Shown here: positions 562-63,818 of the stretch, one piece after another | Numbering within the stretch: position 1 is the stretch's first letter | How the letters are laid out: every line of letters starts with the position of its first letter | Assembly: GCA_944320495.1 (NCBI GenBank) | Contig: CALUHR010000013.1 | Location: forward strand, 160,001-224,000 | Source of the DNA: Candidatus Methanomethylophilaceae archaeon | Lineage (GTDB): Archaea; Thermoplasmatota; Thermoplasmata; Methanomassiliicoccales; Methanomethylophilaceae | Length of the DNA: 64,000 nt | Reading direction: 5' to 3' | Made by a program: the position numbers and the translations under genes | Notes under the pieces: model-generated | What the model saw: only the letters and a program-made list of their open reading frames with translations | Database searches by the model: none | Told to the model about the DNA's origin: nothing

Positions 562-1608
562 ATGCTCAGGAGGATGGAGTGCGGATCCGCGCGCTGCGGC
601 AAGGTGTCCGAGGGATGCGTCAGATGCATCGAGGGGTCCAAGATGGTCCTGCTCGTTACGGGGAGATGCGGCTGGAACTGCTACTACTGCCCCGTGTCCC
701 TGGAGAAGAAGGGGCTCGACGTCATCTACGCCAACGAGGGGCGCGTCACCACCGACGAGGAGGTCATCGCCGAGGCCGAGGCCATGGACGCCCGCGGCAC
801 CGGCATCACCGGCGGGGACCCGCTCGCGGTGATGGACAGGACGCTCCACTTCATACACCTCCTGAAGGACCGCTTCGGCCCGGACCATCACATCCACCTG
901 TACACGGCGACCATGGACCCCGAGAAGTCGAGGGCGCTGGAGGAGGCCGGCCTCGACGAGCTGCGCATCCATCCTCCGGAGGACGTGTGGACCCGTATGG
1001 CCGACACCCGCCTCGCGGAGGTCGTCTCCGCGGTCCGCATCCCCGTGGGCATCGAGGTCCCCGCGCTCCCCCGCAGGGAGGCGGAGCTCCGCGCGATGAT
1101 CGAATATGCCAGATCTGTCGGGGTGGCCTTCGTCAACCTCAACGAGCTCGAGTTCTCCGAGAGCAACTGGGACATGATGAACGCCTACGGCTACGCTGTC
1201 AGGGACGACGTCTCCTCGGCCGTCGCCGGCTCCGAGGAGACCGCCATGGCCGTCATGAAGAAGGTGAGGGGGATCGACATCCACTTCTGCTCCTCGTCCT
1301 TCAAGGACGGGATCCAGCTCCGCAGGAGGCTCATACGCAGGGCGCTCAACACATGCCCGAAGTACCAGCAGGTCACAGAGGACGGCACCATCGTCCGCGG
1401 ATTCGTGAAGGGGGACCCCATCGAGGTCTCCGCCAGGCTCGCCGAGCTCGGCGTGCCTGACGATCTGATGTGCGCCGGGGAGGACCGCGTCGAGGTGGCG
1501 CCGTGGGTCCTCGAGGAGGTCTGCGGCGGCCTCGGGTTCAAGGCCTGGCTGTCCGAGCAGTACCCGACGGCCGACGGCCTCGAGGTCGAGAGGACCCCTC
1601 TGAACCGA
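562..1608 (+). CDS. Radical SAM protein, conserved archaeal family of unknown function
   Basis: CxxxCxxC motif (RCGWNCYYC), GITGGDPL, NLNELE; TATA-like AATATAAG near 531; in-frame CGA at 1606-1608 directly after EVERTPLN; standard-code stop TGA at 1626; start could be 562 or 574. Confidence 0.85.
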
Positions 1609-1634
1609 AAGAGCCAGATGATGTGAGAATGGCA

Positions 1635-1662
1635 CCCCGCACCCTCCCGTGGGGGTGCGGGG
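1635..1662. terminator. GC-rich hairpin between convergent radical SAM gene and nusA
   Basis: CCCCGCACCCTC-CCGT-GGGGGTGCGGGG, 12-bp stem with one G-T pair. Confidence 0.5.
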
Positions 1663-1697
1663 GCGATGGAAATCGTTTGGCGTCCCGCAAGGGACGA

Positions 1698-2126
1698 TCA
1701 CTCGACGCTGAGGCTCTGGATGTCGTGATGCCTGTTCACGATGTCCCTGGCCAGACGCAGGTTCTTGCCCGCCTTGCCGATCGCGCGACCCTTCAGCTTG
1801 GGGTCGACGGTCACCGTGGCATGGGTGATGTTCCCGCGCTGCTCAATCACGACCTTCTGGGGGCCGTAGATGTGGAAGACGTTCATCACGAACTGCTCCG
1901 GGTCCTCGGAGTACTCGACGACCTGGATGTTCTTCCCGGTCAGCTCCTTGAGCTTGATGACATGCTCGCCCTTCTTCCCGACCGCGATGTTGGCCTTGCC
2001 CTTCTCGACGATGAACACGAGCTTGTCCTCGGTGTCCATGCAGTCGATGGCGCTGGTCTTGGTCACGGTCTCGAAGAGGGAGATGTACCTCAGCGTGTCC
2101 TCTGTAAGCACGATGTCGGCGGGCAT
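1698..2126 (-). CDS. nusA: Archaeal NusA (KH domains)
   Basis: MPADIVLTEDTLRYISLFE...AVGKKGEHV...GRAIGKAGKNLRLA; follows rpl30e as in the conserved archaeal operon. Confidence 0.95.
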   Translation of the reverse strand: MPADIVLTEDTLRYISLFETVTKTSAIDCMDTEDKLVFIVEKGKANIAVGKKGEHVIKLKELTGKNIQVVEYSEDPEQFVMNVFHIYGPQKVVIEQRGNITHATVTVDPKLKGRAIGKAGKNLRLARDIVNRHHDIQSLSVE

Positions 2127-2131
2127 TCTGA

Positions 2132-2419: not shown

Positions 2420-3861
2420 ATCTTGTCATCCCCGTTCTTCTTCTTGGGTGTGTAAATCAGGTTTACAGCGCCGGTACCGAGGGTGACCGGCTGTCCGACG
2501 ATGATGTTCTCGGTGACTCCCTCCAGGGGGTCGGTCTCGCCCACCATCGCGGCGTGCAGCAGATGCGCTGCGGTGATCTCGAAGGCCGCCCTTGCGAGCA
2601 CGGAGGACTTCTTTCCGGAGACTCCGTGCCTTCCGATGGCCTTCACGTATCCGTCGTTCGTCATGAGGTCGGCGACCAGCATGATGTGCCTTATGTCGAC
2701 GTCCAGACCGGCCTCCCCGAGGGTGCCCATGGCCTCATGGATGATCGAGTTCCTGGCGGCCTCGATACCCAGGACGTCGGCGACCTCCAGGATGCTGTTC
2801 GTCATGACGTTGTCCGCGTCGACGCCCTCCACCTTGAGCACCTCCTTGAGGTTGCTGCCCTCGGTGATGATCTTCCAGGTGCCCTCCGTCTTGGACAGGA
2901 TGGCCCTGGTGATGCCGTCGATCCCCTTGATCTTGGCATTCTTGATGGCGTCGAACATCAGCTGAAGCTTCTTGTAGGACGGTTCGTCCGAGGTCACGAC
3001 GATCTCGAACCCGTCCTTCTGGACCATTCCCTTGACCGCCTTCACCTTGCCGAGCCTCTCGACGATGTCGTCCTCGGTGATGCCCTTGGCCTCCATCTTG
3101 CGGGGCTCGGGCACGATGATGAGCCTCATGTTGGTGATGTCGGTCTCCACGCGGGCGACGTCCAGCAGGGTCGTGATCTCGATGTTGGAGGCCACGAACT
3201 TGGCGACCATCTCGTCCTCCGCGGCGGTGCCGATGAGGGGGATGTTCATGGACGGCGTGGAGGGTATGCGCCTGGCGTCGACGATCTCGATCAGCCTGGG
3301 CAGACCCTGGGTGACGTTCACGTTCGCGACTCCCGCGTAGTGGAAGGTACGCATGTTCATCTGCGTACCCGGCTCTCCGATGGAGTGCGCGGCCATGACT
3401 CCCGCCGACTCGTTCTGGTCCATCTTGTGCCTGACGTACATCTCGTTGGCGCGTCTGAGCAGCGCCTCGCACTTGTCGTCGGGCAGGTCGGCGTTCTTGA
3501 TGCGGGCGGCGATGTCGACGACGACCTTCAGCGGAAGCTCGATGCCGAGCCTGTCCCTCATCTCCTTGAGCCTGGTCTCGCCCTCGTTGAGGACGTACTC
3601 CTTGACGACCTCCTCCATGGGGGCGACTGGCTCGATCTCCTCGACCTCCTTCTTCGCCTTGGACGGCGCGGAGGCCTTCCTCTTGCCGATCTTGGCGAGA
3701 ACGGAAGCCGCCTCCTCCTCCATCAGACCGAGGTTGACGAGCTCCGCCTCGCCGGCGTTGGCGATGGCGGTGAGCGAGGTGTACTTGGTGAGCAGCAGCG
3801 CGGTGGTCTCCTCGGAGATCCCCCTGCTGGTCAGAGCCTTGATGGTGTCCTTCCTTGCCAT
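2416..3861 (-). CDS. rpoA2: RNA polymerase subunit A2 (Rpo1C) with N-terminal extension
   Basis: [51 protein letters not shown]; start taken at ATG 3861, 2 nt past the rpoA1 stop. Confidence 0.96.
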
Positions 3862-3862
3862 A

Positions 3863-6667
3863 TCACTCGCCTCCTCCCTCGTAGTCGAAGTCCATGTCGT
3901 CCTCGGACTCCTCGGACTCCTCCTCGATGTACTCCATCTCGTCCTTCTCCAGGGATCCGTAGTCCCCTCCGACATCCTTGGTGTCGAGGTGGAGCAGACC
4001 CTCGTAGTCGTCTCCGAGGACCTCGGAGAACAGGTCGTCGAGGTCGATCGCCTTTCCGCGCACGGCCTTGGACGGGTCGACCCCGTCCTCTCCGTAGTAG
4101 AACTGGACGATCGTGCCGGCGGTGTTCCTGACGGTTCCGTCGGCGGTGAGCTTCAGGTCCTCCAGCGCGGAGACGAGACGCCTCTGCATGTATCCGGACC
4201 TGGACGTACGGACGGCGGTATCGACCAGTCCCTCCCTGCCTCCCATGGCGTGGAAGAAGAACTCGGTCGGGGACAGTCCGGACTTGTAGGAGTTGGAGCA
4301 GAATCCCCTGGCGTAGGCGCCGAGGTCCCCCCTCTCGAAGTGGGGCAGGGTCCTGTTCCAGTATCCTCTGGAGAGCCTCTCTCCACGGACGGCCTGCTGA
4401 CCGACGCAACCGGCCATCTGGGACAGGTTGAGCATCGATCCGCGGGCTCCGGCCTTGGCCATGATGACCGCGGGGTTGGACATTCCCAGGTGCTTACCGG
4501 CGATCTTACCGGCTCCGTCACGGGCGTCTCCCAGGACCTTCATGACACTGACCTCCAGGGTCTCCCTGAGGGACCTTCCGGGCATCTGCTCGAGGGTGCC
4601 GTCGCGGTACGAGTCGACCAGCTCGGTCACCTTGTCGATGCAGTCCTGGGTGTTGTTGGCGATCTGCAGCGCCGCCTCCTCGGGTATGTCCTCGTCGCCG
4701 ATTCCGGTGCTGAACCCGTGGTTCATGATGGATCCGAGGGCGAGCCTCGTGACCTGGTTGATGAACTGGGCGGCGCGGTCGGCGCCGTAGCCCCTGGCGA
4801 TGCGGTCCAGGATCTTACCCTTGCTGTTCCCGATCCCCTTGACGTCGATGGTTCCGCACAGCAGCTTGCCGTCCCTGATCTTGACGTACGCGTCGAACTC
4901 GCACTGGTCCTTCTTGCAGACGGAGCAGTTCTGGCAGATGTTCGCCTTGAAGGTGGTGTTGAAGTCGTCCGGGAGGACGGTGGAGAACAGCTGCTTCCCG
5001 GTCCAGTAGTGCTCGCCGGTCTTCTCGTCGATGAACGGCTCGGGCATCTCGATGTCCCCGAGCTTGAACATGATGTTGGAGGCCTCGGCGGCGCCGAACC
5101 TGGGGTTGTTGTGCGTGAGGAAGTACGCCCCGGTGATGTGGTCGTGGATGGCACCGATTATGGGTCCTCCGTACCTGGGTGAGAGGATGTTCTCCTGGAC
5201 CAGCATGAGGATGCGCGCCTCGGCGCGGGCCTCGTCGGACTGGAGCACGTGGAGGTTCATCTCGTCGCCGTCGAAGTCGGCGTTGTACGGCGGGCAGTCG
5301 CACAGGTTGAACCTGAAGGTGCGTCCGGGCATGATCCTGACGCGGTGTCCCATGATGGACATCCTGTGCAGCGAAGGCTGCCTGTTGAACAGGACGATGT
5401 CGCCGTCCACGAGCTGCCTCTCGACCACGTAGTCGACCTCGATGCCCTCGGCCACGTCGGCCGCGTTCTTCTCGGTGACCCTGATCCTCCTGCCGTCGGA
5501 ACGGATGACGTAGTTGACGCCGGGGACGTAGGGGTTGTCCGGGAGCGGTCCGGGGCCGCGGGCCACGAACTCGCGCATCCTGTCGATGTTGTGGGCGTTG
5601 ACGTGCACGGGCACGGTCAGCTCCCTGGCCGCGATGACCGGCACGCCGACCTCGTTGATCGAGAGCAGGGGGTCGGGCGAGATGACGGTACGGGCGCTGA
5701 AGTTGACACGCTTTCCGGACAGGTTGGACCTGAAGCGTCCCTCCTTGCCCTTGAGCCTCTGGGCCAGCGTCTTGAGCGGGCGGCCGGACCTGTGCCTCGC
5801 GGGCGGGATGCCGGAGGTCTGGTTGTCGAAGTAGGTGGTGACGTGGTACTGGAGCAGCTCCCACAGGTCCTCGACGATCAGCTGCGGCGCACCGGCGTCA
5901 CGGTTCTCCCTGAGCCTCTGGTTGATCCTCAGGACGTCGACCAGCTTGTGGGTCAGGTCGTCCTCGGACCTGTCTCCGGAGTCGAGGGTGATGGACGGCC
6001 TCACGGTGACCGGCGGGACCGCCAGGGCGGTGAGGACCATCCACTCGGGCCTGCAGGTCTCGGGGTCGATGCCCAGGGCCCTGAGGTCGTCGTCGGGGAT
6101 GCGCTCGAGCCTCTCGCGGACCTCCTTGGCGGTCAGCTTGTGGTTGTCGTTGACCTCCCTGAAGGTGGTGGGCTTGTCGAGCTTGATCTTGATCTGCTCG
6201 GCGCCGCAGTAGGGGCAGATGCCCTTTCCGGACGCGTCCTTGGCGGTCTCCTTGGAGTAGTTCTTGAACTCGACGGTGTCCCCGCCGAACTCCTCCATCC
6301 TCTCCATGCTGTCCATGCGGGCCCTGATCTGCTCCTCGGAGAGCATCAGCCTGCCGCATTTGCAGCAGGTCGACTCCAGGAGCATCTTGATGTCCTTGAT
6401 GAACCCGACGTGGATGACCGGCATGGCCAGGTCGATGTGCCCGAAGTGTCCGGGGCACTCGTCGACCTTGCATCCGCAGGTCTTGCAGCGGAGACCGGGC
6501 TCGATGACTCCCATGTGGGGGTCCATGAGTCCCATCTCGATCGGGTATCCCTCGTCATCGTAGGTGTCCGCGGTGATGATCTTCGTCGCGGACATCCTCC
6601 TGATCTCGTCGGGCGAGACGCAGGAGAATTTGATGGATCCGATCCTCTTCGTGATTCCTGCTGTCAT
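3863..6667 (-). CDS. rpoA1: RNA polymerase subunit A1 (Rpo1N)
   Basis: Catalytic [46 protein letters not shown]; ATGA overlap with rpoB stop; acidic C-terminal tail. Confidence 0.98.
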
Positions 6668-10266: not shown

Positions 10267-10270
10267 TCGC

Positions 10271-10843: not shown

Positions 10844-11644
10844 TCGGTTTTCGGACTCTCCGGCCCTCTCCGTGACCGGTGCGGCCCTCTTCCTGGCAAA
10901 GATGAGGTACGCCGTGTGGCCGAGGGTGTCGAAGGACGGCCTCACCCCTCCTGGGTGGACCTCCATGAACCTCTGGATGTTCTCCAGCGCACGGACGTCG
11001 GCGTAGCCCGCCTCGCGGAGGGCCGTGACTATGCTCTCCATCTGGTTCATGTTCGGCACGTAGGCGCAGAGCCTGCCGCCCGCCCTCAGGAGGGGATCGA
11101 GATTGGGCAGCGCCAACCACGGGTCTGGCATGTCCATGGTGAGCGCGTCCGCCTGCCAGTCGATTCCTGGATCGGCCTCGCGGGCGTCCCCGATGGAATA
11201 GGACCAGCGGGAGTCCAGCCCGGTGCGGGCGACGTTCCTCTCCGTGCGCTTCGCGTTCTCCTCCTTGAGCTCCATGGTGTGCACGTGGCCCGTCGGACCT
11301 ACGGCGGTGAGCAGAGCGGTGGTGAGGCCGCCGGACCCAGCGCCGATCTCGAGGACGCGGTCGCCGGACTTCACGTCGCAGTGCATGAGGATCGTGGCGG
11401 CGTCCTTGGGCGAGATGATCTGGGCGCCCCTCTCCAGCGAGCCGATGAGGTCCATCGCGCCGGGGCGGAACACGGTGTACTCGCGGCCGACCAGGGTCAC
11501 GCGGTCGCCGTCGTCCAGTCCCTTGAGCTTGGACCCGTCCATGGCGCCGAGCCCCTGGACCTTCAGCATGCCGAACGAAACCTTGAGCCAGTGCCTCTTC
11601 CCCTCGGCGTCCTCCAGGAACACCGTCTCGCCCTCTGCGAACAT
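10844..11644 (-). CDS. trmI: tRNA (adenine-N1)-methyltransferase TrmI
   Basis: GAQIISPKDA, VLEIGAGSGGLT, MDMPDPW, GVRP..TLGHTAYLIFARK; CGA at 10844-10846 gives 266 aa; standard stop at 10766. Confidence 0.92.
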
Positions 11645-11734
11645 GGACGGACGATTGGGCACCTCGTTTAATAGAATGACCCCGCCGGGACGCGTCCGGA
11701 CGGGTTCGCCGGGCACGGGGCCCGGCATGGTTTC

Positions 11735-14271: not shown

Positions 14272-14574
14272 ATGGCAGAAAGACAGGACGTCGTCACCGA
14301 CGAGCGGATGGACAAATACCTCGACATCACGGGCCGCGCCCTGGCGAAGCTCAGGATCGCGGCGCCGGAGAAGTCCTACAACCGCCGCCTGGCGGACAGC
14401 TTCCTCGAGATGGCCAACTGCTACTACTCGGACGCGAAGCACTTCAGGGAGTGCGGAGACCTCGTCACCGCCTTCGCGGCCGTTAACTACGCCCACGCCT
14501 GGCTGGACTGCGGCGCCAGGATCGGCCTCTTCGACGTCGGAGGGGACGACGTCCTCTTCACGCTCTTTGAACGA
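14272..14574 (+). CDS. DUF357 family protein
   Basis: FLEMANCYYSDAKHF...AFAAVNYAHAWLDCGARIGLF...DDVLFTL; CGA at 14572-14574; standard stop at 14604. Confidence 0.85.
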
Positions 14575-17232: not shown

Positions 17233-17640
17233 TTAAACCTTCATCAGTTCGACGCGCTCCCTCAGGAGCCTGACCGCCGAGTCCAGCGACTCGACGTCCT
17301 TGGAGTACGGCCTGCAGAGGACCGTCAGGTCCCTGCGCACCGTGTCGTCATAATCCACGCAGAGCGACTCCAGGTCCCGCCTCAGCGAATCCGCGAGGTT
17401 CCCTCCGCGCCTGTCCCAGTCCGTCAGGATCACGGCCGGCCTCCCCTCGCGCCAGACGTGCTCCGCGGCCTTCAGCGGCCCTCCGCCGGACTGGACGCAG
17501 TAGAACTCCCCCTCGATCCCCAGCGCCCTCAGGGCGTCGACGTCCTTCAGGCCCTCCACCAGGATCACGTGGTCCTCCGCCAGCTCCGAGAGCCTGGCCA
17601 GGCACTCCTCGATGGACTCGAGGCGCTCGGCGTCGTCCAT
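17233..17640 (-). CDS. Small Toprim-domain protein (RNase M5-like)
   Basis: ILVEGLKDVDAL, VILTDWDRRG, DVESL. Confidence 0.85.
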   Translation of the reverse strand: MDDAERLESIEECLARLSELAEDHVILVEGLKDVDALRALGIEGEFYCVQSGGGPLKAAEHVWREGRPAVILTDWDRRGGNLADSLRRDLESLCVDYDDTVRRDLTVLCRPYSKDVESLDSAVRLLRERVELMKV

Positions 17641-17932
17641 CGACGGCCCCCAGCGAGGCGAGGATGGGATCGGGGTCGCCGCGGATGCGGACGGTCTTCT
17701 GCCTGGACGTCATCCCCGAAGAGACCTCGCACCTGCATCCGGTCAGATCGGAGAAGAACCTGCAGACCTCCGCGTTAGCGCGTCCGTCGAGCGGCGGGGC
17801 GGAGACCCTCAGGACCATGCGCCTCCTCCACTCGTCGTAGCCGTCCGGACCGGGGCGGCTGGACCTGGGTGAGACGGACACATCGACCTCCACCCACCCG
17901 TCGCCGCGGCGGCAAACATCCTGGACCCTCAT
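17633..17932 (-). CDS. DUF167 (YggU-like) protein
   Basis: VSPRSS, VSAPPLDGRANAE, SGMTSRQK; CGA at 17633-17635 gives 99 aa and an ATGGACGA overlap with the Toprim start; standard code adds 95 out-of-frame aa. Confidence 0.88.
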
Positions 17933-20815: not shown

Positions 20816-22345
20816 TCGCAGGTCCTTCGCCATGTACGGCAGGTCGTACCCGTATCCGAGGGACGCGTAGTATCTCCTGACGCCCACCCCGCTCGTGACC
20901 CTGATCCTGCCGTACCCGCGCTCCCTTGCGAGGTCCTCGGCCCTGGCGACCAGCTCGCGGCCGAACCCGCGGTGCTGCCACTCCCCCTCGTCGCCAATCG
21001 ACGCGGCCTTCCCGAAGACCTTCAGCTCGCGGATGGTCGCGTTGGCGTCGAGCCTCAGGCGGGCGTATCCGATCAGGGAGTCCCTGTACTCGTAGGTGAT
21101 GAACAGCTCCGTGCCGCCGCAGGCCTCGTACTCGATCACCTTCGGCTCGGCGTCCGCCGGGTCCCTCAGGACCACGCCGGTGTGGCCGACCTCCCTGCAG
21201 CGGATGCACCTGCACGGGCGGCCCTCCGCACGCATGCGGTCCTCGACGAGCTGGCGGATGTTGCTGGTGGTTATGCCCGCGGCGATCTGCGGCGCGGGAA
21301 TGTCCCTCTGGATGCGCTGGATGCGCACGTACTCGGGGACGACGGACTTCATGTCGGCCAGCAGGCGGACGGCGGTCTCGGTGTCGTACGGCTCGTATTC
21401 CCCGGCCCTCCACATATCGTAGAGGCCGGTGCCATCGATCACGAGGGTCGTGTAGAACTTGAGCATGTCCGGACGGTACGCGGGGTCGTCGAACACCCTC
21501 CTGAAGCATTCCAGGTCGTGCTCCGGCGACGATCCCGGCAGTCCGGGCATGATGTGGTAGCAGACCTTCAGGCCGTGCTCCCTGCACTCGCGGGTACACC
21601 TGCGGACCTCTTCGGTCCCGTGGCCCCTGTCCACCCCCCTGAGTATGTCGTCATCGAGAATCTGCACGCCGAGCTCCACCCTTGTGGCCCCCAAGGCCAT
21701 GGCGCGCTCGATCTGCTCCGCCCCGAACACGTCCGGGCGGGTCTCGACGGTGAGCCCGACGCACCTGTGAGCGGAGGTCTCGTTCAGACGCTGCGCCTCC
21801 TCCAGCGTCCCCGAGTCGGTACCGTTCATGGCGTCGAAGCACCTGCGCACGAACCACTCCTGATAGTCGGCGTCGCGGCTGGTGAAGGTCCCGCCCATGA
21901 CGATGAGGTCGATCTTGTCGGTCGGATGGCCGATGTCCGTGAGCTGGCGTATGCGGTCGGTCACCTGCAGGAAGGGGTCGAAGTCGTTCCTTCCCGCGCG
22001 GCGTGCGGCCGGCTCCTTGCCCGTGTAGGACTGCGGGGAGCAGTTGCCCACCCCTCCGGGGCAGTAGGTGCACCTGCCGTGGGGGCAGTCGTGAGGAGAC
22101 GTCATCACGGCGACTACGGCCACGCCGGACATCGTGCGCATGGGCTTCTTGACCAGGAGCGGCAGCAGGAGGTCCCTGTCCTCCTCGCGGACGTTCGCCA
22201 GGATGCTGGAGTTGGGGGGCACGCCGGCGAGTCCGTACCTCTTGCAGAGCTTCAGCTTGAGGTTCTGCAGCTGGTCCCTGTCGCGGACGGTCCCGTCCCT
22301 CACCGCCTGGATGAGGTCGGCGGAGAGCTGTGAGACGTCATCCAT
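20816..22345 (-). CDS. elp3: Elp3 tRNA wobble-uridine radical SAM/acetyltransferase
   Basis: CPHGRCTYCPGG, MGGTF, ETRPD, HIMPGLPG, RIQRDIP, QHRGFG, SGVGVRRYY; CGA at 20816-20818 follows YMAKDL (509 aa); standard stop at 20723. Confidence 0.95.
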
Positions 22346-24897: not shown

Positions 24898-25479
24898 TCG
24901 GAGGATGTGCGTGCGCCTGGCGAGCTCCAGGTCCGGCATCTCCCCGATCCTGCGGGGGATGACGTCGAGGTTCTCGCCGTACAGCTCGGAGAGCTCCCAG
25001 TGAAGGGCCTCGACCCTGTCCGCGCCGCGGTCGGCGCCCTTGGAGCGGAGCTTCGACACGGAGTGCTCGTGGGAGACCACGCGGTTGTCGCTCACCATGT
25101 TGTCCGCATGGGCGACGATCTTCTCCTCGATGGTCCGGGGCATGTAGTCCGCCGGCGGGAGGCCCATCTCCGCCACGTCCTCGTCGTCCAGACCGGCGCC
25201 CGTGTGCTTGCGGACGATGTCCACCAGCGCGGGCGACAGCCCGTGCGCGGCGACGATCTGGGAGCCTATGTACGCGTGCATTATCGAATGGTCCACGGAG
25301 CGTCCGATGTCGTGGAGCAACGCCCCTGCCGTCACCAGGGCCCTGTCGGCGTCGATGCGCGTGAGCATCTCCTGCGCCACGGCGTTCACCGTGCAGCAGT
25401 GGATGATGACCCTGCGCTTGCATCCGGCGTCCTTCAGGAGCTCGATGCACTCCGCATCGCTGGGGATCGTGCTCGACAA
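24898..25479 (-). CDS. HD/HDIG domain protein
   Basis: IIHC, GALLHDIGR, HTGAG, EEKIVAHADN; TTG start; CGA at 24898-24900; standard stop at 24886. Confidence 0.85.
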
Positions 25480-25987
25480 CGGTCTTCCCCCTCTCGTTCG
25501 GGACCACCTCGAGGTGGCCCCCGCGGTCCTCGTAGAGGGCCTTCCCCTCTGTGAAGCGGTCCAGGAAGATTGCCAGCGCCGCTATCTCCGAGTGCGGCTG
25601 GTTGCCCACGGAGACGTTGAAATCCGCGCGCTGGTACACCTCGGCGGGCACCTTCTCGGCACCCACGACTATGAGTATGTCCTCGTCCCGCGGGATCTTG
25701 GGCAACGCCTCGTCGACCCTCTGCCCGTACATGGTCAGATGGACGACCTTCCCGGGGAAGTCCTTGATCTCCTGCTTCCAGGAGACCCCGGTCTTTATGG
25801 TGTAGTCCCCGCCGAACCTCTCCACGACGCTGCGGATGTTCTCCTCCAGCACCGGGTCCTCCGTGTCCACGAATATGCCTTTGGCACCGAGTGCGCGGGA
25901 GCTCAGGGCCACATGGGTGGTGACCCTCTTGTCCCGCTCCGGACGGTGGCCGATCCTCATTATCCAGATTCCGGCCAAATCCGTCAC
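25457..25987 (-). CDS. trm56: tRNA (cytidine-56-2'-O)-methyltransferase
   Basis: RIGHRPERDKRVTTHVAL, VHLTMYG, VVGAEKVP, NQPHSEIAALAIFLD; CGA at 25457-25459 gives 176 aa; standard code runs 212 further codons to 24821. Confidence 0.93.
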
Positions 25988-27209: not shown

Positions 27210-27303
27210 ACCTGGACTCCATCGGCTGCCCACAGTGCGGGCACATGGAGAACGGCATTATGTCCGATATCTCCGCGCCGCAGAACTCGCACCTGTCGCT
27301 CAT
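27136..27303 (-). CDS. Small zinc-ribbon protein
   Basis: MSDRCEFCGAE...MCPHCGQPM (two CxxC); 3' end overlaps the convergent gene by 74 nt, so the true end is uncertain. Confidence 0.55.
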   Translation of the reverse strand: MSDRCEFCGAEISDIMPFSMCPHCGQPMESRFSGEHPSEGRLSRPASSRIRPWRP

Positions 27304-27823
27304 CGCCCCTCCTCCCGAACACGCTGACGAAGCGCTCCGCACATCCTGGATCCGCCGGGACGGCGGACCTGAAGCGGATCGTGTCCAGCGCCTCCACATA
27401 GTACGGCCGGAGATCCGCGCTGGCACTGACCCTCGGTCCCATGGGCCCGCGCTCCGACAGCACCTAGAAGAACCCGTCGGTGGCCATGCCGCGGGGCGTC
27501 CCGTGCCCGCGCATGAAGGCCATGACCTGCCGCAGGGGATCGTCCACGGGACGGTTCATCGGGACCATCGCGAGGATCGTGCCATCGTATCCGCCCAGAC
27601 CGTCGAGGCAGTACTCCGGGTCGCCGTAGCCGATTCCGCGCATCACCGGCATCACCAGCGTGCGCTTGGTCAGCTCGTACGGGGACTCGAACCCGGCCAG
27701 CCCCTTGAAGCCGGGAGTGAAACGGCCGGACACGGCCGCCCCGCACATCCTGACGCCCATGGAGCGGTCCAGCTCGCGCACCGCACCCATGCACACCTCC
27801 GACAGTGGATTCCCGTGGATCAT
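27296..27823 (-). CDS. Hypothetical protein with in-frame TAG at 27464-27466 (candidate pyrrolysine), ending at CGA
   Basis: 119 codons, TAG, then 55 more in-frame codons (ATDGFF-TAG-VLSERG...DLRPYYVEALD), then CGA at 27296-27298 overlapping the next ATG. Confidence 0.6.
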
Positions 27824-28272: not shown

Positions 28273-29037
28273 ATGACCGGAACCTGCACCATCGTGATCC
28301 CGACGTACAACGAGGAGCGGAACATAGCGAACATAGCCAGGGCCATACGCGAGGCGTACCCCGACTACAGGATCCTCTTCATGGACGACAACTCCACGGA
28401 CAGGAGCCGCCAGGAGGTCGAGGCCCTGAACGACCCGCTCGTGACGTTCTACGTCCGCGACCCGGATGCCAGGGGGCTCGGTGCGTCCGTCCTCCAGGGT
28501 TTCGCGCTGGCGCAGACCGACTACGCCATGTGCATGGACTGCGACTTCCAGCACCCTGTGTCCGCGCTCGGAGGCCTCGTCGCCGAGATGGACAAGGGCG
28601 CTGACATCTGCGTCGGGCAGAGGAACAGCAGGATGTCCATGGGTTTCAAGAGGGCCATGGGGTCCGAGGTCGTCGAGGCGTTCTGCAAGGTCCAGTTCTG
28701 GGTGCACGGGAAGCAGACCACCAAGGACATGATGAGCGGGCTGTTCGCGCTCAGGTGCGATGTGTTCAGGCCAATCATCGAGAACAACTGGGACCAGTTC
28801 GAGCTCCGCGGATGGAAGGTCCTGATGGACCTGCTCAAGTTCGCCGACCGCAGGATGAGCGTCTCCTACTACAGATACGACTTCGGCACCCGCGCGGAGG
28901 GCGAGTCCCACCTCAACCCGAAGGTCCCGATCATGACCTTCCACCAGCTCTGGGGGTTCGGGAAGTGGTGCGCCAGGGTCGTCGCCAAGATCTACGGCGT
29001 GGACTACTACGAGATGTACCCCGCCGAGAGGAGACGA
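28273..29037 (+). CDS. GT2 polyprenol-phosphate mannosyltransferase-like glycosyltransferase
   Basis: IPTYNEERNI, DDNSTD, MDCDFQHP, RAEGESHL; CGA at 29035-29037 shares its A with the next ATG; standard stop at 29052. Confidence 0.9.
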
Positions 29038-29805: not shown

Positions 29806-30222
29806 TCGGAGCCTCTTCCGCATCATCACGTGCGGACAGTACTCGTCGAGGTACTCGTCGCCGAACGCCTCGTACCCCAGCGTTTCGTAGAACCCCTTTG
29901 CGCGGACCTGAGCGGAGAGCAGCGATTCCCTGAACCCCATGGACCGGGCCACGTCCTCGGCCTCGGTCACCACCGCAGAGCCTATGCCCCTGCCGCGGTA
30001 CTCCCTGACCACGGCGATCCTGCCTATGTGGCATTCGCCGCCCTCTCCGGGGATGATGCGGCAGACAGCGACGGGGACGTCTCCGTCATAGAGTACGATG
30101 TGCTTCGAGATCGCGTCGTCATCGTCGAACTCGACCACGAAGCCCTGCTCCTCGACGAATACGTCGGTGCGTATGCGGACCTCGTCGTCGGAGATCGAAT
30201 CGGACACGACCGGGCGGAGCAT
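29806..30222 (-). CDS. GNAT N-acetyltransferase (ElaA/YjcF-like)
   Basis: IRTDVFVEEQG, IGRIAVVREYRGRGIG, AQVRAKGFYETLGY, HVMMRKRL then CGA at 29806-29808; standard stop at 29788. Confidence 0.9.
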
Positions 30223-31553: not shown

Positions 31554-31913
31554 TCACCTCATGATCCTGACGCCGGTTCCCTTGGGGTTGGCCTCGGCCA
31601 GCTCCTCGATGGTCAGCGTCTTTCCGCCCGCGGCCTCGATGGCCTTGGCTGCAGCGTCCGAGAAGTCGTACGCGGCGACGGTGATCTTCTTGCTAATCGT
31701 GCCTGCGGCGAGAACTTTGCCCGGAACGAGGATGGTCTCCCCGTCCTGTGCATACCTCTCAAGTTTGCTGAGGTTCGCTTCGGCCCAGTTCCTCTTGGGT
31801 TTCTCGAGCCGGAGCGCTACATCTCGCCAGATGGCAGCTTCAGTCTCCCTCGTCTTCGCCTTGAGGTTGTCGATCAGGGCGATGAGCTGAGGATTAGTCT
31901 TAAAGCTCCTCAT
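31554..31913 (-). CDS. rpl18e: 50S ribosomal protein L18e
   Basis: KTNP, VPGKVL, KITVAAYDFS.AA..I..AGG. Confidence 0.96.
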   Translation of the reverse strand: MRSFKTNPQLIALIDNLKAKTRETEAAIWRDVALRLEKPKRNWAEANLSKLERYAQDGETILVPGKVLAAGTISKKITVAAYDFSDAAAKAIEAAGGKTLTIEELAEANPKGTGVRIMR

Positions 31914-31985: not shown

Positions 31986-32342
31986 TCGGCGAAGGCCGAC
32001 CTGCTCCTTCCACAGCCGCCTCGCCGTGATGTTTCCGTAGAGCCACAGCACGAACATCGCGAACACCATCAGGAATCCCGGGAGCGAATCCACACGGACC
32101 CCCATGGAACCGGGCTCGCTGTATCCGTACAGCGCTACCACGAGGACCAGGAGTATGACGCTCGGTATGAACACCTTCAGACCGCGGTCCCTGTCGCCAA
32201 GGTACACGAGGCCCATTCCCGGAAGGACCAGTGACAGTATCATCGCGACCACCTCGCTCTTGCCGCCGTCGACCCAGGTCCCGCATGACGGGCAACGGTG
32301 CAGATTGCTGGGTATCTCGGCTCCGCATTCCCTGCAATACAT
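31986..32342 (-). CDS. Zinc-ribbon plus TM2-like membrane protein (118 aa)
   Basis: MYCRECGAE..CPSCG, ILSLVLPGMGLVYLG, two further hydrophobic segments; CGA at 31986-31988; under the standard code it reads through into rpl18e. Confidence 0.82.
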
Positions 32343-33668: not shown

Positions 33669-34700
33669 TCGCTCGCGGAGAATCGCGTCCACCGCATCGG
33701 AGAACGGGACATCCCCGCCGACGCGGAATGTGCGGCACCCCAGACGGCGACCGAACTCCATGTCGGAGTCGCTGTCGCCGACCATCCACGACCTGGACGG
33801 GTCTATGCCGTACCTGGCCATGGCGGCGAGCCCCATGCCTATCTCCGGCTTGCGGCACGAGCAGTTCTCGTCCGGCCGGTGGGGGCAGTAGAAGATGTCG
33901 TCGATGCGCCCGCCCCCGGCCTCGACGGTGCGCCGGAGCTTGGAGTGGATGGCATCGAGGGTCGCGAGGTCGAAGTAGCCGCGGTTGAGCCCGGACTGGT
34001 TGGTTATCACTATGACCAGGTATCCTGCGCGGTTGAGCCTGGCGATCGCCTCCGGGACGTCGGGGTAGACCTCGAACTTGTCCGGGTCGTCGCAGTAGGG
34101 GACGTTCCTGGCGACGGTGTCGTCCCTGTCGATGAATACGGCTCGGCTGCCGAAGAGCTCCCTCTCGACGATGCCGGCCACGATGTGGCAGGCGCAGAGG
34201 TAGCCCTCCTGGACGTGGGGGGTCTCGGTGGTGGGGATGACGACCGCGTGGTCCGCGATCTCCCTCATCTTCCCGCAGTCGCCGGTGAAGGCGATGGTCA
34301 CGCCTCCGCGGGCCTTGGCCTCCTCCATCGCGAGGATCACGTTCTTGGAGTTGCCGGATGTGGAGAGCCCGACGAGGACGTCCCCCTTCCTGCAGATCCC
34401 CTCGACCTGCCTCTTGAACACGATGTCGTAGCTGTAGTCGTTCCCGATGGCGGTCACGGGGGCGATGTTGGACAGGCACACGCCGGGGAGCGCGGGACGC
34501 TCCATCATGTACCTGCCGGAGAACTCGGCGGCGATGTGCTGCGCGTCTGCGGACGAACCGCCGTTGCCGCAGAATATGACCTGATTGCCGTTGCGGAACG
34601 CATCCCTGATGATGTCCGCAGCTTTCCTGATCTGGGCGGGATCGATCGCGGAGATCGCCGCAGCCGCCTTCCCAAGCTCCGCCGTAATCGCGTCAGTCAT
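33669..34700 (-). CDS. gmhA: Fused phosphoheptose isomerase (GmhA) / heptose-bisphosphate phosphatase (GmhB)
   Basis: CGNGGSSADAQH, GNDYSY, STSGNS, HVQE; then DRDDT, ITNQSG, CPH..C.CRKP, MVGD; CGA at 33669-33671; standard stop at 33618. Confidence 0.92.
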
Positions 34701-53618: not shown

Positions 53619-53629
53619 GGTTTGTCAGC

Positions 53630-55071: not shown

Positions 55072-56454
55072 TTAATCGTTGACGGGAGCCCGACTATTCG
55101 AATCATCGCCTGGACGGCGCGAACGGATGGCGCGGAGAAGGTCGTCCCCGTGCATCTGCCACAGCACCATCACGATTCCGAGACACTGGAGAATCGAACC
55201 GAGCCCGAACTGGATGTTCCTCGGCGACAGACCGAGCAGGACCGGATCGTTCCACATGGTGAAGAACGACACCAGGGAGTCGACGTCGAACCATCCCTCC
55301 CAGACGCCCAGCGGGGTGAGGGTGGATGCATTGGACCCGAACACGCATATCACGGCGCCGACGGCCATGATTTTCCAGGACAGTATGAACCTGCGCTCCT
55401 CCGCCGCGATCCAGTATGCCAGGAACGGCACGAGGACGACCATGTACTGCGTGGTCGGCGGATAAACGAGGACCAGCGCCGAGATCAGGAGGCACGACTT
55501 CATCAGCACCCTCGTCGGATCGCCGTCCCTGTTGCGGTACATCACCACGGCCGCATACGCGGATATCACTAGAACGATCGCATAGACGATGATCCTGGAG
55601 AACCCTATGACCGTGTCGAGGAGGGAGCTGTCCACTCCGGACCCGGTGCGGTCGCTGAGGAACTGGAAGCATTCCTCTATGTTGCCCGCCAGGATCTGAG
55701 GCGCGAAGATGATCGCGGCCATCGCCCCGGCACCCACGGCCGCGAGGACCACGTGGGAGACGGCGCGCCTGCGGTCGTCCCTGTTGCGGACGAGGATGTA
55801 CGCGACCAGCACGAATATGAGGAACGCCGGGAAGAACTTGGTCAGGACCGCCAGAGAGAAGGTCATGCCGGCGATGAGCGGGTGGTCCTTCCTGAGCAGG
55901 ATGACCGTGAGCACGGCGAACATCGCCGATATCGTGTCGGGCATGGCGATGATGCCCGTGGACGCCAGGAGAACCGGCGAGAGGAATGCCAGTGCGAATC
56001 CGAGGACCGCCTTGCGGTCGTCTCCGGTGACGTCCCTCACCAGATACCATACGGCGAAGGCCAGCGCCGCGTCGAAGACGTAGAGCGGCACCTTCACCGA
56101 GTACAGGAACGCGACGGACGGGATCGTGGAGCTGAAGTACTGGCCCATCCCCTCGATCGGGATAATCTCCGCGACCTTCACGGCGACCTCGCCGAGATTG
56201 AGCAGCGCATCCTGCAGCACAGCCACCAGCCCCAGGATGTACCCCCACACCGGCGTGTAGTAGTAGCCCTCCACCCCGTAGAGGCCCTGGCCGATCTCGA
56301 TGTTCCTTATGACGAGGGCCCAGTACTCCGAGTCGTAGACTATGGACAGAGGGGCGATGGCGATCCTGATCAGGATCCCAACTACGAGGATCAGAAGCAA
56401 CGGATGCCTGACGTTGGCGATGCGGTCGCACACCTTTGAGAGGACCTCGGACAC
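55072..56454 (-). CDS. GT-C-like membrane glycosyltransferase, paralogue of 51519-52772
   Basis: GQGLYGVEGYYYTPVWGY, LTKFFP, TTQY; GTG start. Confidence 0.65.
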   Translation of the reverse strand: MSEVLSKVCDRIANVRHPLLLILVVGILIRIAIAPLSIVYDSEYWALVIRNIEIGQGLYGVEGYYYTPVWGYILGLVAVLQDALLNLGEVAVKVAEIIPIEGMGQYFSSTIPSVAFLYSVKVPLYVFDAALAFAVWYLVRDVTGDDRKAVLGFALAFLSPVLLASTGIIAMPDTISAMFAVLTVILLRKDHPLIAGMTFSLAVLTKFFPAFLIFVLVAYILVRNRDDRRRAVSHVVLAAVGAGAMAAIIFAPQILAGNIEECFQFLSDRTGSGVDSSLLDTVIGFSRIIVYAIVLVISAYAAVVMYRNRDGDPTRVLMKSCLLISALVLVYPPTTQYMVVLVPFLAYWIAAEERRFILSWKIMAVGAVICVFGSNASTLTPLGVWEGWFDVDSLVSFFTMWNDPVLLGLSPRNIQFGLGSILQCLGIVMVLWQMHGDDLLRAIRSRRPGDDSNSRAPVND

Positions 56455-57469
56455 GGAACGCGCCCCCGTACTTGGCGAACGTGCCGCCGATGTAGATGTA
56501 CAGCGTCAGATCGGTCGCGTCGCCCTCGAACCCGACGGATCCGGAGACCGTGCCGCGAACCACATCGCCCTCCGAATGCGACACTATCTCGGACGAGACC
56601 GTGATTCCGGATGCGATTATCTGGGTCAGATCGTCCACGCTGTCGAAGTTCTTCGGTCCGGAGACCACGAACATGGACCCCTCGCCGAACGGTATCCCCG
56701 AGACGGAGGCGTACTCCCCATCGGTGAATCCCATCTCGATGGACCCCTCGATCGATGACACGTCCGCGGCGAAACGGATGTTACCGTCCTTGAGGGTCAG
56801 CGCGTCCAGGAAGCCGTTGTCGATCTCGGAGTCCGCATACTCGGGACCGTCGCGGTTGAGGCACTCGGACCCGAAGAGCAGGACCTGGTTGTCCTCCACC
56901 TCGAAGAGCGTCTCCCCGTCTGTGTGGAACCTTCCGGCCTCGGCGGCCGTCCAGTAGACCGTCCCGCCTGCCCTGACCCATTGCAGGAGGAGACAGTCTG
57001 AGGTCCCGTCGTAGACGGATGACGGGAGCGCATAGGACGAGACCACCAGTCCGATTCCGACCGGATCGGCAATAGTCTCCCTGAGTGCGTCCTCCAATTC
57101 GGATGTCCCGCATTCGGAGACGTCGTGGAAGGAACGGACGGCGAGGGCCTCGACGACCTCGTGCGCGTACGGGGACTGCGAGCAGTAATCCACATTGCTC
57201 ATCCGATACGCCTCCCCGTACAGGTCGTCGTACGTCTCATCGACATAGACGAGGACCGAGGACACCGGCGTACGGCCGCCGTTGTCGATGAGAACCGCAT
57301 CATAAACATCCGACCCGGAGGAGCTGACTTCGTAATCCACCTCTCCGTCGGACCATTCGGCGTCGGCGCCGTAGCTGTGCACATCCGCATAGGTAAGCAC
57401 CTCTCCGGCGACGACGACAGCGCAGAGAAGGACTGCGACGATGGCGACGGCATCGGTGCGAATCCTCAT
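56447..57469 (-). CDS. Exported/membrane-anchored hypothetical protein (340 aa), paralogue of 50522-51532
   Basis: N-terminal anchor, LLQWVRAGGT, YIYIGG; CGA at 56447-56449 gives a GTGTCCGA overlap; standard code adds 448 aa over the next gene. Confidence 0.72.
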
Positions 57470-58115: not shown

Positions 58116-58157
58116 GGCCCGGCATCACATTTTAAGGACCGGACCAATCCCCCGACC

Positions 58158-61131: not shown

Positions 61132-61199
61132 TTTTTTTGGCACGGAAAAAGAGTACATCCTGAATCGGGCACTCATTTTCCGTGTATCCGTACAAACGG

Positions 61200-61877
61200 T
61201 CACTCCGACTTCCCCTCGGGCGGATACATCCTCCCGAGGTTCCTCCAGGTGATGATGGCCCTCTGGATGGCCGTGAGGTTGCCGACGACGGCGAACCACA
61301 GCATCATTATCCCGAGCCAGGTGAGCTCGAATCCGAATATGTCGAACGAGGCGTACTGCCCGTCCGCGACGCAGAGCATCACGAACTGGATGAGCGGGAA
61401 CAGCGTCGACAGCACCACGCGATCGGCCCTCCCGAGCAGACCGGCGTAGAGCCTCGGGGCCCCGATGGCCTGGGCCTGGGTGCCCATGTACGAGGTGAGC
61501 AGCACGCCCACCAGAGCCAGCATGCCCAGGTACGGGTCGCACCACCTCACACAGAACGCGACGCCGCCGATCATGAAGACGTCGGCGTACCTGTCGAAGA
61601 CGTGGTCCAAGTAGTCCCCCTTGGGCCCGGCCTTACCGGAGAGCTTGGCGACCTTGCCGTCCAGGGCGTCGAAGTACCCGGAGACGATGACCATCACCGC
61701 CCCGAGGACGAGCATCCACTCGTTGCCCTCCTCACCGCTGAACCAGAACACCACGCCGCAGAGGAGCGCCAGGATCAGCCCGACCCATGAGATCGTGTTG
61801 GGGTTGACGTTTATCAGCTTCCGCGCGACGGGTGCCAGCGCGAAGTCCACGGTCGATCTCTTGCTGTCTAGAACCAT
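61200..61877 (-). CDS. CDP-alcohol phosphatidyltransferase (archaetidylinositol-phosphate synthase-like)
   Basis: NPNTIS, DALDGKVAK...GDYLDHVFDRYAD, GRADR. Confidence 0.88.
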   Translation of the reverse strand: MVLDSKRSTVDFALAPVARKLINVNPNTISWVGLILALLCGVVFWFSGEEGNEWMLVLGAVMVIVSGYFDALDGKVAKLSGKAGPKGDYLDHVFDRYADVFMIGGVAFCVRWCDPYLGMLALVGVLLTSYMGTQAQAIGAPRLYAGLLGRADRVVLSTLFPLIQFVMLCVADGQYASFDIFGFELTWLGIMMLWFAVVGNLTAIQRAIITWRNLGRMYPPEGKSE

Positions 61878-62401
61878 GCGTCCATCTCCGGCGTCCAATC
61901 GGTGCCGCCGGGAGGGTAATCCGAAGCGCCACCACTTATGATTTTCTCCGCGATGTCCGCAGCCTCGCTAACAGTCACGGACGTGCAGTCAATCTCCCCC
62001 ACGGGGATGTCCGTCTCCGCAGCCTCGCAGAGAATCTCGTCGAGTATCTCGGCCTGGACGTTCTCCCTAACCTTGTCCTCGGAGTAGCCGCGAGCGCGGA
62101 GGCGCTCCGCCAGGACCGACGGGGCACAGCGAAGGACCACGATCCCGCTGGAATCCATGAAGTGCGACAGGTGGCTGTCCAAGATGTGGACGTCCGGGTC
62201 CTCCCTGAGCGGCTCCAGCGCGTCGTTGAGGGCGTCTAGATCGACCTCGTAGGTGTCGCGCTCCGCGTCGTACTCCCCCAGCAACCCGTTCTCGCGGATG
62301 AACGCCTTCCCGTCGATCACGTCGTGTCCGCGGGACCTCAGCTCGGCGGAGAGCGTGGACTTCCCGGTCCCGGGGGTTCCCGTGAGTGCGAAGAGGACCA
62401 T
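61868..62401 (-). CDS. Archaeal adenylate kinase (AK6/Fap7-like)
   Basis: LTGTPGTGKST, DSHLSH, LRARGY..KVRENVQAE; ends TAG, next in-frame CGA at 61853-61855. Confidence 0.88.
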   Translation of the reverse strand: MVLFALTGTPGTGKSTLSAELRSRGHDVIDGKAFIRENGLLGEYDAERDTYEVDLDALNDALEPLREDPDVHILDSHLSHFMDSSGIVVLRCAPSVLAERLRARGYSEDKVRENVQAEILDEILCEAAETDIPVGEIDCTSVTVSEAADIAEKIISGGASDYPPGGTDWTPEMDAWF

Positions 62402-62450
62402 GCCCTCCGGAACGCTCCTGCCCGTATTAACCGTGTCGAGTCTTCGCCGG

Positions 62451-63818
62451 TCGGTGGTCCACCGGCACTCCCCGATCCACCAGGACCACGTCCCGCTCGG
62501 ACATCACCCTCTCGTCGAAGCCCGACACGGAGAACAGCCCGAGGGTCACGTCGTAGCCCTCCAGCTCCGGGATGGATGCGACCTTGCGCCTGAGGTGGTT
62601 CAGCACGTGGTTGTCGACGGGATTCCCCTTGTGGTACTTGCATTCGGCCGCGAAGGCCCTCCTCTCCGAATCGTTTATCGCGAGGACGTCCACCTCGACG
62701 ACCCTGGACCAGTACGACCCCACCCTCTCGGGCGTGAATCCGATGATCCCCGACATGGAGCGGGTCTGCTCCCTGCAGATGTCCTCGAAGACGAAGGCCG
62801 CATGGTCCTCCACGAAATGGGCGTCGAACCGGGACATCGCCCACTCGGTGTGCCCCAGCTCCAGCTCCGACATGTACGGGCGGACGAAGCGGAACCAGAA
62901 GGCCGTGTAGTTGTCGGCCACCGAGTACAGACCGCTCCTGCTCCTCTCCGGATTCCTCTCCGTGGCGGGGACCGTCCTCCTCAGGACGCGGATGTCGATC
63001 AGCCTCGAAAGATACGACGTCAGCGTCGTGGCGGGGACCTGGATCGCGGACGCGATGTCGGAGATCCTCCTACTGCCGCCGGCGACGGCCGCCACCACGG
63101 ACATGTACGTGGCGACGTTCTTCACCTCCTCGCCCAGGAGGACCTTCGGATCGTCGAACATCATCGCCAAACGATCCATGACGTTGTCCAGGACGTTCTC
63201 CCTCAGTGAGCGCCCGTCGAAGAGCTCCATATATCTCGGCACACCTCCGAGGACGGCGTATCTCTCCACCGCTTCGGTGAACTCTCCTCCAGTGCTCGCA
63301 TACACGGTGGCGAACGGCAGAGGGTTCACCACGATGTGCCTCGAGAACCTCCCGTAGAGGGGGCTGTCCCTGTCCTTGTCGAGGCTTTCCATCACGGTCA
63401 TGTGCGACCCGCACAGGATCACTGTGGTCGAGCTCTTGGAGAGCACCTCGTCCCAGACCTCCTGGAACATCGAGAGGAATCCCCCCTCTGTGCCGATCAT
63501 GTTCGGGAACTCGTCGATGACCAGGATCTTCCTCCCGTCCGAGGATTCGGCGAACGCCCTGAACGCATCCCTCCAGCGCACGAACTCCCCGTACGTCCTG
63601 CCAGTATGCCTCGAGAGCGCGGCGGAGAAGTCCCTCAGCATCATCGGACCGTTCATCTCCTGGGCGAAGTAGTACATCGCGCCCCTTCCGTCGATGAACT
63701 CCTTGATGAGCCTCGTCTTTCCAACGCGGCGACGTCCGGTCACCAGTATCAGGGAGCTCTCCCTCGCGAGCTCCCCCTTTAGGAGACCCAGCTCCTTCTC
63801 CCTGCCTATGAACTCCAT
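62451..63818 (-). CDS. Archaeal AAA ATPase with wHTH and DUF234 domain
   Basis: FIGREKEL, TGRRRVGKT, IDEF, LYGR, GGVPRY, DNYTAFWFRF, EVDV..ECKY; CGA at 62451-62453; standard stop at 62427. Confidence 0.9.

Follow-up and report, generated by a model that had tools for sequence, protein, structure and literature searches.

The window, i.e., the whole stretch of DNA considered here, comprises 64,000 nucleotides (positions 160,001 to 224,000 of contig CALUHR010000013.1, assembly GCA_944320495.1) from a Methanomethylophilaceae archaeon. Its subject is the codon CGA, which in the standard code specifies arginine and here stands at the end of many genes. An earlier note on this DNA listed 21 in-frame CGAs at protein ends and proposed that the codon has been reassigned to termination. 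That interpretation is partly supported. CGA is the true end of about one-fifth of the genes of this organism, but the reassignment is not clean, as conserved CGAs in aRF1, L18e and GmhA-GmhB need decoding.

The genome to which the window belongs spans 1.77 Mb in 14 contigs, with 62% GC, and is 90.6% complete. A search with the Elp3 protein of the window matches assemblies of Methanomassiliicoccales and Methanomethylophilaceae. One of them, the assembly L001, has 98% identity, and Ca. Methanoprimaticola sp. MG2 and Ca. M. hominis have 74–75%. The source organism is a member of the Methanomethylophilaceae, close to Ca. Methanoprimaticola.

CGA codons in the window

Genes are called with four stops (TGA, TAA, TAG and CGA) and a codon log-odds model in which CGA and the three standard stops have zero weight. 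As long spurious open reading frames (ORFs), including antisense ones, are plentiful at 62% GC, the model is trained on ORFs with a high G+C content at third codon positions (GC3) and not on long ORFs. In the following list, the tail is the stretch of codons between a CGA and the next standard stop in frame, and +4 is the base directly after the codon.

550..1608, plus strand: radical SAM protein; CGA at 1606-1608, five codons before a TGA, with A at +4; the short tail makes this case ambiguous alone
10844..11662, minus strand: TrmI/GCD14 tRNA methyltransferase; CGA at 10844-10846, tail of 25 codons, GC3 falling from 0.89 to 0.60
14272..14574, plus strand: DUF357 protein; CGA at 14572-14574, with TGA at the same column in L011 and L016
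15424..16611, minus strand: CoaBC; CGA at 15424-15426, with TGA at the same column in orthologs
17633..17893, minus strand: DUF167 protein; CGA at 17633-17635, tail of 94 codons with GC3 0.43 and six further CGAs
20816..22345, minus strand: Elp3 (Pfam match); the protein ends MAKDL before CGA 20816-20818, with ortholog stops aligned
24898..25479, minus strand: HD-domain gene (Pfam match); CGA at 24898-24900, orthologs with TGA, TAA or CGA at offset 0
25457..25978, minus strand: aTrm56; CGA at 25457-25459, five residues after the end of the Trm56 domain, tail of 211 codons with GC3 0.41; ortholog stops at offset 0 or -1
27296..27397, minus strand: small ORF; CGA at 27296-27298, no Pfam match, a weak case
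28273..29037, plus strand: GT2 glycosyltransferase; CGA at 29035-29037, with CGA at the same column in L001
29037..29801, plus strand: alpha/beta hydrolase; CGA at 29799-29801, Abhydrolase domain at residues 20-242 of 254, tail GC3 0.40
29806..30222, minus strand: GNAT acetyltransferase; CGA at 29806-29808; the match to Acetyltransf_10 reaches the end of this 128-position profile at residue 138 of 138
31554..31913, minus strand: ribosomal protein L18e; internal in-frame CGA at codon 30 (31824-31826), spanned by the Pfam Ribosomal_L18 match
31986..32252, minus strand: small membrane protein; CGA at 31986-31988, followed in the same frame by the L18e gene
33669..34142, minus strand: GmhB (HAD) part of the GmhA-GmhB ORF; CGA end at 33669-33671, relatives stopping within 0–5 codons
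34143..34700, minus strand: GmhA (SIS) part of the same ORF; junction CGA at 34143-34145
45307..46659, plus strand: phosphomannomutase (PMM); CGA at 46657-46659
46660..47664, minus strand: bacterial-type PGI; CGA at 46660-46662, tail of 139 codons; the match to bact-PGI_C runs to the end of the 151-position profile, at residue 328 of 334
50522..51532, minus strand: unknown family, paralog of the 56449 gene; CGA at 50522-50524, tail of 258 codons with GC3 0.51
51519..52724, minus strand: unknown family; CGA at 51519-51521, tail GC3 0.33
56447..57469, minus strand: unknown family; CGA at 56447-56449, open tail of 447 codons
58158..59783, plus strand: radical SAM/HhH protein (gene call and Pfam); CGA at 59781-59783
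62451..63818, minus strand: gene ending in CGA at 62451-62453, tail of only 7 codons
62911..63174, plus strand: small ORF with a CGA end at 63172-63174, absent from the earlier list

All 21 positions listed before hold an in-frame CGA on the strand given for them, and the coding signal ends there. Over the 100 codons upstream, GC3 lies between 0.77 and 0.97, and in the tail it is mostly 0.33–0.78. The tails run for 3 to 447 codons to the next standard stop. Any other in-frame CGA in these 21 ORFs is located far upstream, before the likely start. The estimate of 21 out of about 70 genes is of the right order, as the gene calls give 57 confident ORFs in the window, of which 39 end at TGA, 15 at CGA, two at TAG and one at TAA. 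Four sites are weaker, those at 1606, 27298, 29035 and 62453, which have tails of 4–7 codons or lie in a tiny ORF, and they rest mainly on the genome-wide statistic.

Two arrangements of neighboring genes involve the codon directly. The palindrome CGATCG at 46657-46662 provides a CGA stop on each strand, for PMM (plus) and for the convergent PGI gene (minus). At 29035-29039 (CGATG), the GT2 gene and the hydrolase gene overlap by one base, which belongs to both the CGA stop of the former and the ATG of the latter.

Termination at CGA across the genome

The behavior of each codon type is described by a drop test, in which an in-frame codon preceded by 80 codons of strong, stop-free coding signal is followed over the next 40 codons to see if the signal is kept. 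Genome-wide, the signal is lost after 94% of the CGAs (n = 157), which equals the loss after TGA (94%, n = 669) and is close to that after TAA (91%, n = 23). Sense codons lose it in only 6–32% of the cases, and the comparably rare A-ending codons CTA, CAA, TCA, CCA, GTA and ACA in 14–19%. Among the 1220 confident ORFs of the genome, 903 end at TGA, 244 at CGA, 42 at TAG and 31 at TAA. The pattern is far beyond chance, and the observation is confirmed. A negative control is provided by 200 kb of the genus g4, where 44 CGAs occur in 38194 aligned codons and the signal drops after 7% of them. There, CGA is an ordinary sense codon, and therefore the method does not create the CGA-stop result.

Comparison with relatives places the gene ends at the same columns. 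Orthologs of the window genes ending in CGA stop at offset 0 in 62 of 162 comparisons and within one codon in 121 of 162, mostly with TGA. At the sites 14572, 15426, 20818, 24900 and 25459 the orthologs have a standard stop at the same column. An example of such behavior is Elp3, in which the end at MAKDL is marked by CGA here and by TGA, TAG or TAA, exactly aligned, in dozens of relatives. The same end is CGA in five assemblies from unrelated studies (L001, L008, L010, L020 and L031). One of them, L010 (CAVICI010000034.1), is labeled Dialister hominis; it carries a Methanomethylophilaceae Elp3 locus with the CGA stop and is probably mis-binned. In the 56449 gene, CGA stands at the same column in L262-L264, L266 and L267, and in L265 and L270-L272 a TGA follows 2–3 codons past the end of the alignment. 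Pfam domains end at the CGA of sites 29808 and 46662 and close to it at 25459, 29799, 46657 and 17635. The shared stop columns and the domain ends therefore rule out an artifact of a single assembly as well as real C-terminal extensions.

These results bear on the two simplest explanations. The first is that sequencing errors from T to C, or problems of the consensus, have turned TGA into CGA. The window assembly consists of 14 contigs and is 90.6% complete, but the same pattern occurs in many assemblies of unrelated studies, and also in genomes of the genus that form a single contig. Moreover, CGA is selectively missing inside genes, a clade-specific change is found in the tRNA, and random errors would not cluster at stop positions alone. 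Such an artifact is effectively refuted. A basecalling error at a methylation motif was considered as well and rejected, as the sites share no motif beyond CGA and the next T, and many assemblies agree. The second explanation takes CGA as ordinary arginine and the tails as real C-terminal extensions. A tRNA-Arg(UCG) gene does exist and a few CGAs are clearly decoded, yet the coding statistics collapse at CGA, the orthologs stop at that column, and the tails reach 447 codons and run over neighboring genes, which makes this explanation hardly credible.

The tail after a CGA has a median length of 25.5 codons, compared with 29 after TGA, and exceeds 100 codons in 26% of the cases. Comparison of the 244 CGA ends with the 903 TGA ends reveals no enrichment of back-up in-frame standard stops soon after CGA, and this speaks for efficient termination. 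The best-scoring genes use CGA stops less often, with 8 of 122 in the top decile of the codon score and 114 of 366 in the bottom 30%. This shortage fits a newer or slightly weaker terminator.

CGA stops also differ from TGA stops in their downstream context. The +4 base is T at 142 of the 244 CGA stops (58%) and A at 6%, whereas after TGA it is T in 265 of 903 (29%) and A in 21% (chi-square p = 4e-17). T follows 23% of all CGA trinucleotides in the genome. The triplet TCG follows 16% of the CGA stops, giving CGATCG, and CGATG occurs at 25% of them, versus 7% for TGATG at the TGA stops.

TAG behaves differently from the other three gene ends. The coding signal drops in one of five strongly coding cases (20%), and three-base periodicity continues after the 42 TAGs, which are preceded by G in 83% of the cases. 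The two in-frame TAGs of the window are located at 18873 and 27466, both on the minus strand. Judged by its coding signal, TAG behaves as a sense codon here and is no longer a stop, which fits Genetic Code 34.

Decoded CGAs, tRNA-Arg(UCG) and the release factor

CGA is not confined to gene ends. The genome-wide screen finds only four in-frame CGAs with a coding signal over 40 codons on both sides, and alignments over 176687 in-frame codons find only two clear deep internal CGAs, in aRF1 and in GmhA-GmhB. This homology scan is filtered for frame, after an all-frame version was swamped by out-of-frame alignments. It still lists many CGAs in in-frame leaders upstream of start codons, which are not counted as internal. 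The remaining two matches of the 40-codon screen are less clear; one is probably a stop with an ATG three codons on, and the other precedes a membrane anchor. Since the CGA of L18e lies 29 codons from the start and is missed by both the 40- and the 20-codon screens, the count of internal CGAs is a lower bound. The claim that CGA never occurs inside genes fails in the window itself, which holds two conserved internal ones, L18e codon 30 and the GmhA-GmhB junction. Apart from these, the ORF G000:C5:177965-179086 (+) has an in-frame CGA (+4 C) between its soluble part and a pair of predicted membrane helices, and the ORF closes with a second CGA. It is possible that the first is a further read-through site.

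To judge from their conservation in sequence, the CGAs at aRF1 codon 78, at L18e codon 30 and at the GmhA-GmhB junction must be decoded as an amino acid. Codon 78 of 410 in aRF1 lies in the N-domain, is CGA in all eight genomes of the genus, and aligns with the conserved Arg of the RLK segment in the human, Halobacterium and Aeropyrum factors. For comparison, just 22 of the 159 conserved aRF1 positions with 4–6-fold degenerate codons keep one codon in all eight. In each of the 29 aRF1 genes read from CGA-poor genera, one or more CGAs persist, for instance at codon 11, 25, 50, 78 or 123. The gene also holds another invariant rare codon, as Arg186, just after GGQ, is CGT in the same eight genomes (L083-L090).

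Throughout the family, GmhA and GmhB share one ORF with no standard stop between them. The codon at the junction is CGA in seven of seven genus genomes, and other genomes have AAG, AAA or AGA there. As the junction CGA is not followed by a conserved start codon, GmhB seems to need read-through. In L18e, all 30 of the 30 genomes compared, from 10 genera, have CGA at codon 30, while the mean codon identity over the gene is 0.59. The segment of codons 28-31 (31815-31835, minus strand), ATC TGG CGA GAC, is near-invariant at the nucleotide level, with a codon identity of 0.9–1.0 against 0.59 for the whole gene. This segment spans the same 30 genomes and 10 genera, including a genus with normal CGA use, and it has no match to a known RNA motif in Rfam.

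The cognate tRNA is still encoded. The predicted loss of tRNA-Arg(UCG) did not occur, as the gene is present in the window genome, passes the Rfam tRNA threshold with 55.7 bits, and is found in seven of the eight genus genomes. In all seven copies the 31-39 pair of the anticodon stem is non-standard (A.A, U.C or C.A), whereas it is standard in all 19 copies from other genera. The other four pairs of the stem are kept through compensatory changes. Because these pairs are kept while 31-39 is broken, tRNA-Arg(UCG) is under selection in an altered form. It evolves fast, with 83–91% identity within the genus. In genus g9 (L138, L140), the mismatch in the anticodon stem of tRNA-Arg(UCG) is not at 31-39, as in g1, but at the top of the stem (C27.A43).

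There is one aRF1 per genome. A second aRF1 paralog as a reader of CGA was sought in these genomes and not found; each has just one further match, weak (E ~1e-6) and limited to residues 213-326, which is taken as aPelota. Eight substitutions in aRF1 are specific to the genus, all of them outside the NIKS and Y-R-C-D-S-x-F motifs. At the position that aligns with L123 of yeast, the aRF1 of Methanomethylophilaceae has Arg (in Y-R-C).

Taken together, the sequence patterns suggest that CGA is probably a dual-meaning codon, mainly a terminator and still arginine at a handful of conserved sites. In the proposed mechanism, the single aRF1 would release the peptide at CGA, which differs from UGA in the first base only. 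This release would compete with tRNA-Arg(UCG), which may be weak through its broken 31-39 pair. The context could bias the outcome, with U after most terminating CGAs and C or G after the decoded ones (+4 is C in aRF1 and G in L18e and GmhA-GmhB). The in-frame CGA of the aRF1 gene would then allow a feedback, in which more aRF1 leads to more premature stops in its own message. A more specific proposal, in which the balance is set by this feedback, is tentative and somewhat less probable than not being so. According to it, the CGA of aRF1 would act as a sensor, and the weakened tRNA would decode just enough for aRF1, L18e and GmhA-GmhB.

Several points weigh against the dual-meaning interpretation. 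First, C or G is found at +4 also at 36% of the terminating CGAs, and therefore the +4 base alone cannot decide the outcome. Second, the cognate tRNA is kept, which means that termination at 244 sites must out-compete tRNA-Arg(UCG). Third, the NIKS and Y-R-C-D-S-x-F motifs of aRF1 do not differ between the CGA-stop genus and neighboring genera where CGA is Arg, and a clade-specific change in NIKS or YxCxxxF is therefore not supported. The Y-R-C element is common to these relatives and to Aeropyrum; it is therefore not sufficient and at most sets the stage. Fourth, the L18e CGA is kept also in genera with normal CGA use, and its retention may reflect a constraint at the nucleotide level and not regulation. 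L18e, a highly expressed essential gene, would have to escape a stop at codon 30. Finally, termination at CGA is read here from assembled DNA sequences.

Two other explanations compete with this interpretation. In the first, C-to-U editing of the mRNA makes UGA from the CGA at gene ends, and the code is standard. CGA and UGA are one C-to-U change apart, the relatives have TGA at the same columns, and the bases that the sites tend to have in common downstream, U at +4 and often UCG or UGG, could be a recognition context. Editing would also account for a tRNA and an aRF1 of ordinary appearance. However, blanket editing is unlikely, as it would act on in-frame xCG|A codon pairs as well and alter their amino acids, and these pairs are not depleted (6424 observed, 7034 expected, ratio 0.91). 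Site-specific editing, in turn, must recognize over 240 sites with hardly more than one base in common and spare aRF1, L18e and GmhA-GmhB. It also leaves the purge of internal CGA and the altered tRNA stem unaccounted for. We know of no description of mRNA C-to-U editing in archaea, and overall this explanation is very unlikely.

The second takes CGA as a starved codon, at which ribosomes stall because tRNA-Arg(UCG) is scarce and weakened, and are rescued by aPelota/ABCE1 with peptidyl-tRNA hydrolase or by unspecific action of aRF1. The broken 31-39 pair and the fast evolution of the tRNA (83–91% identity) are in line with such starvation, as are the unchanged aRF1 motifs, and release at CGA in yeast has been framed as the rescue of stalled ribosomes (PMC7379694). 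Nevertheless, one-fifth of the genes would need slow rescue for their normal termination. The tails show no enrichment of back-up stops, and the strong +4 preference and the conserved CGA in the aRF1 gene point to a release factor as the reader. Starvation is thus unlikely, if less so than editing.

Across the family, CGA use per genus was estimated from 20-kb samples around aRF1, with larger samples for g4, g9 and Methanogranum. In the 20-kb samples, g1, g3, g5-g9, g15 and g16 have 0–2 CGAs per 3500–4300 aligned codons. In most of these CGA-poor samples the remaining CGA sits in aRF1 (codon 11, 25, 50, 78 or 123). The high-GC g15 genome G051 has four, and CGA is used more freely in g4, g11-g14 and g19. 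The complete g9 genome of 1,666,795 bp has two CGAs in 79131 aligned codons, and about 1% of its genes end at CGA. These g9 figures come from a coding model trained by homology, as a self-trained model was contaminated by wrong frames in which CGA is falsely common. A genome taken as Methanogranum has seven in 34477 aligned codons. It seems that CGA was nearly lost from much of the family and has re-emerged as a common terminator in the high-GC genus, where a T-to-C change at TGA stops would be tolerated.

Implications and known systems

To our knowledge, no NCBI translation table has CGA as a stop, and all accepted changes from sense to stop are found in organelles. A literature search yielded no paper describing CGA stops in this clade. 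The codon described here would be the first sense codon with stop duty outside organelles. The relatives show graded stages, from genera in which CGA is normal, through others in which it is nearly extinct, to the present one in which it ends 20% of the genes. As a result, the proposed routes of code change, by codon disappearance or through an ambiguous intermediate, become directly testable. The case also suggests that a sense codon can become a stop without loss of its cognate tRNA. If the feedback reading is true, it would represent the first sense-to-stop change in a cellular genome together with an archaeal counterpart of RF2 autoregulation, and the wider family, where CGA is almost extinct and not yet a common stop, would preserve intermediate stages.

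There are practical consequences as well. In public annotations of these methanogens of the human and animal gut, about one-fifth of the genes would carry false C-terminal extensions or fusions that swallow their neighbors, and gene callers need a dedicated table for the CGA stop. The family supplies PylRS/tRNA pairs for genetic code expansion, which makes its termination machinery of applied interest.

Dual-meaning codons are known, such as UGA for stop and selenocysteine, UAG for stop and pyrrolysine, and the context-dependent stops of Condylostoma and Blastocrithidia. As in these systems, one codon here both terminates and is decoded, context and tRNA structure may tune the balance, and the anticodon stem is altered. 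Unlike in these systems, a sense codon gains a stop meaning, not a stop codon a sense meaning. Short anticodon stems are found among the cases of dual-meaning codons (PMC13092985). The broken pair here is 31-39, next to the loop, and not 27-43 at the top of the stem as in those cases.

Organelles provide the accepted precedents for a sense codon turned stop (NCBI tables 2, 22 and 23), with AGA/AGG in vertebrate, UCA in Scenedesmus and UUA in Thraustochytrium mitochondria (see also PMC6821328). Like in these codes, a codon with a standard amino-acid meaning stands at the ends of genes and has been cleared from their interiors. The differences are that the codon is CGA, on the chromosome of a free-living archaeon, that the cognate tRNA is kept, and that a few sites are still decoded.

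The bacterial release factor RF2 (prfB) has an in-frame UGA early in its own gene and regulates itself via a +1 frameshift. Similarly, the aRF1 gene carries, early in frame and conserved (codon 78 of 410), the codon that its product would read as a stop. In contrast to the +1 frameshift of RF2, tRNA-Arg(UCG) would simply decode the CGA, and the regulation is proposed from the position and conservation of the codon.

Within Archaea, a CGA stop has also been suggested for another lineage. In two Njordarchaeales assemblies the codon is absent from conserved domains, and the authors suggested a stop role (bioRxiv 10.64898/2026.04.02.715157). That lineage differs from the present one in belonging to another phylum, with about 50% GC, CGG as Trp and tRNA-Arg(UCG) reported absent, and the stop role there is only suggested. 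Closer in descent is Genetic Code 34, where TAG always stands for pyrrolysine and two stops are counted; the paper does not mention CGA (bioRxiv 10.1101/2024.09.30.615893). It concerns the same archaeal family, and TAG is sense-like in the present genome too. Unlike the two stops of Code 34, this genus would have three, namely TGA, TAA and CGA.

The nearest biochemical parallel is found in yeast, where eRF1/eRF3 compete with tRNA-Arg at CGA and release the peptide (Wada and Ito 2018, PMC7379694). This offers a path to CGA stops that requires no altered motif in the factor. Even one CGA closing a gene is read as a stop to a detectable degree, and UGA-biased variants of eRF1 at L123, including L123R, improve the growth of a strain with a CGA-stall reporter, from which the authors infer more release at CGA (PMC7379694). 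The likeness lies in a class-I release factor of the eRF1/aRF1 family that, by alignment, has Arg at the position of L123 as in the UGA-biased L123R variant. In yeast, release at CGA is a minor side reaction observed on reporters, whereas in this archaeon, whose factor is known by its sequence, it is apparently the regular end of about 20% of the genes.

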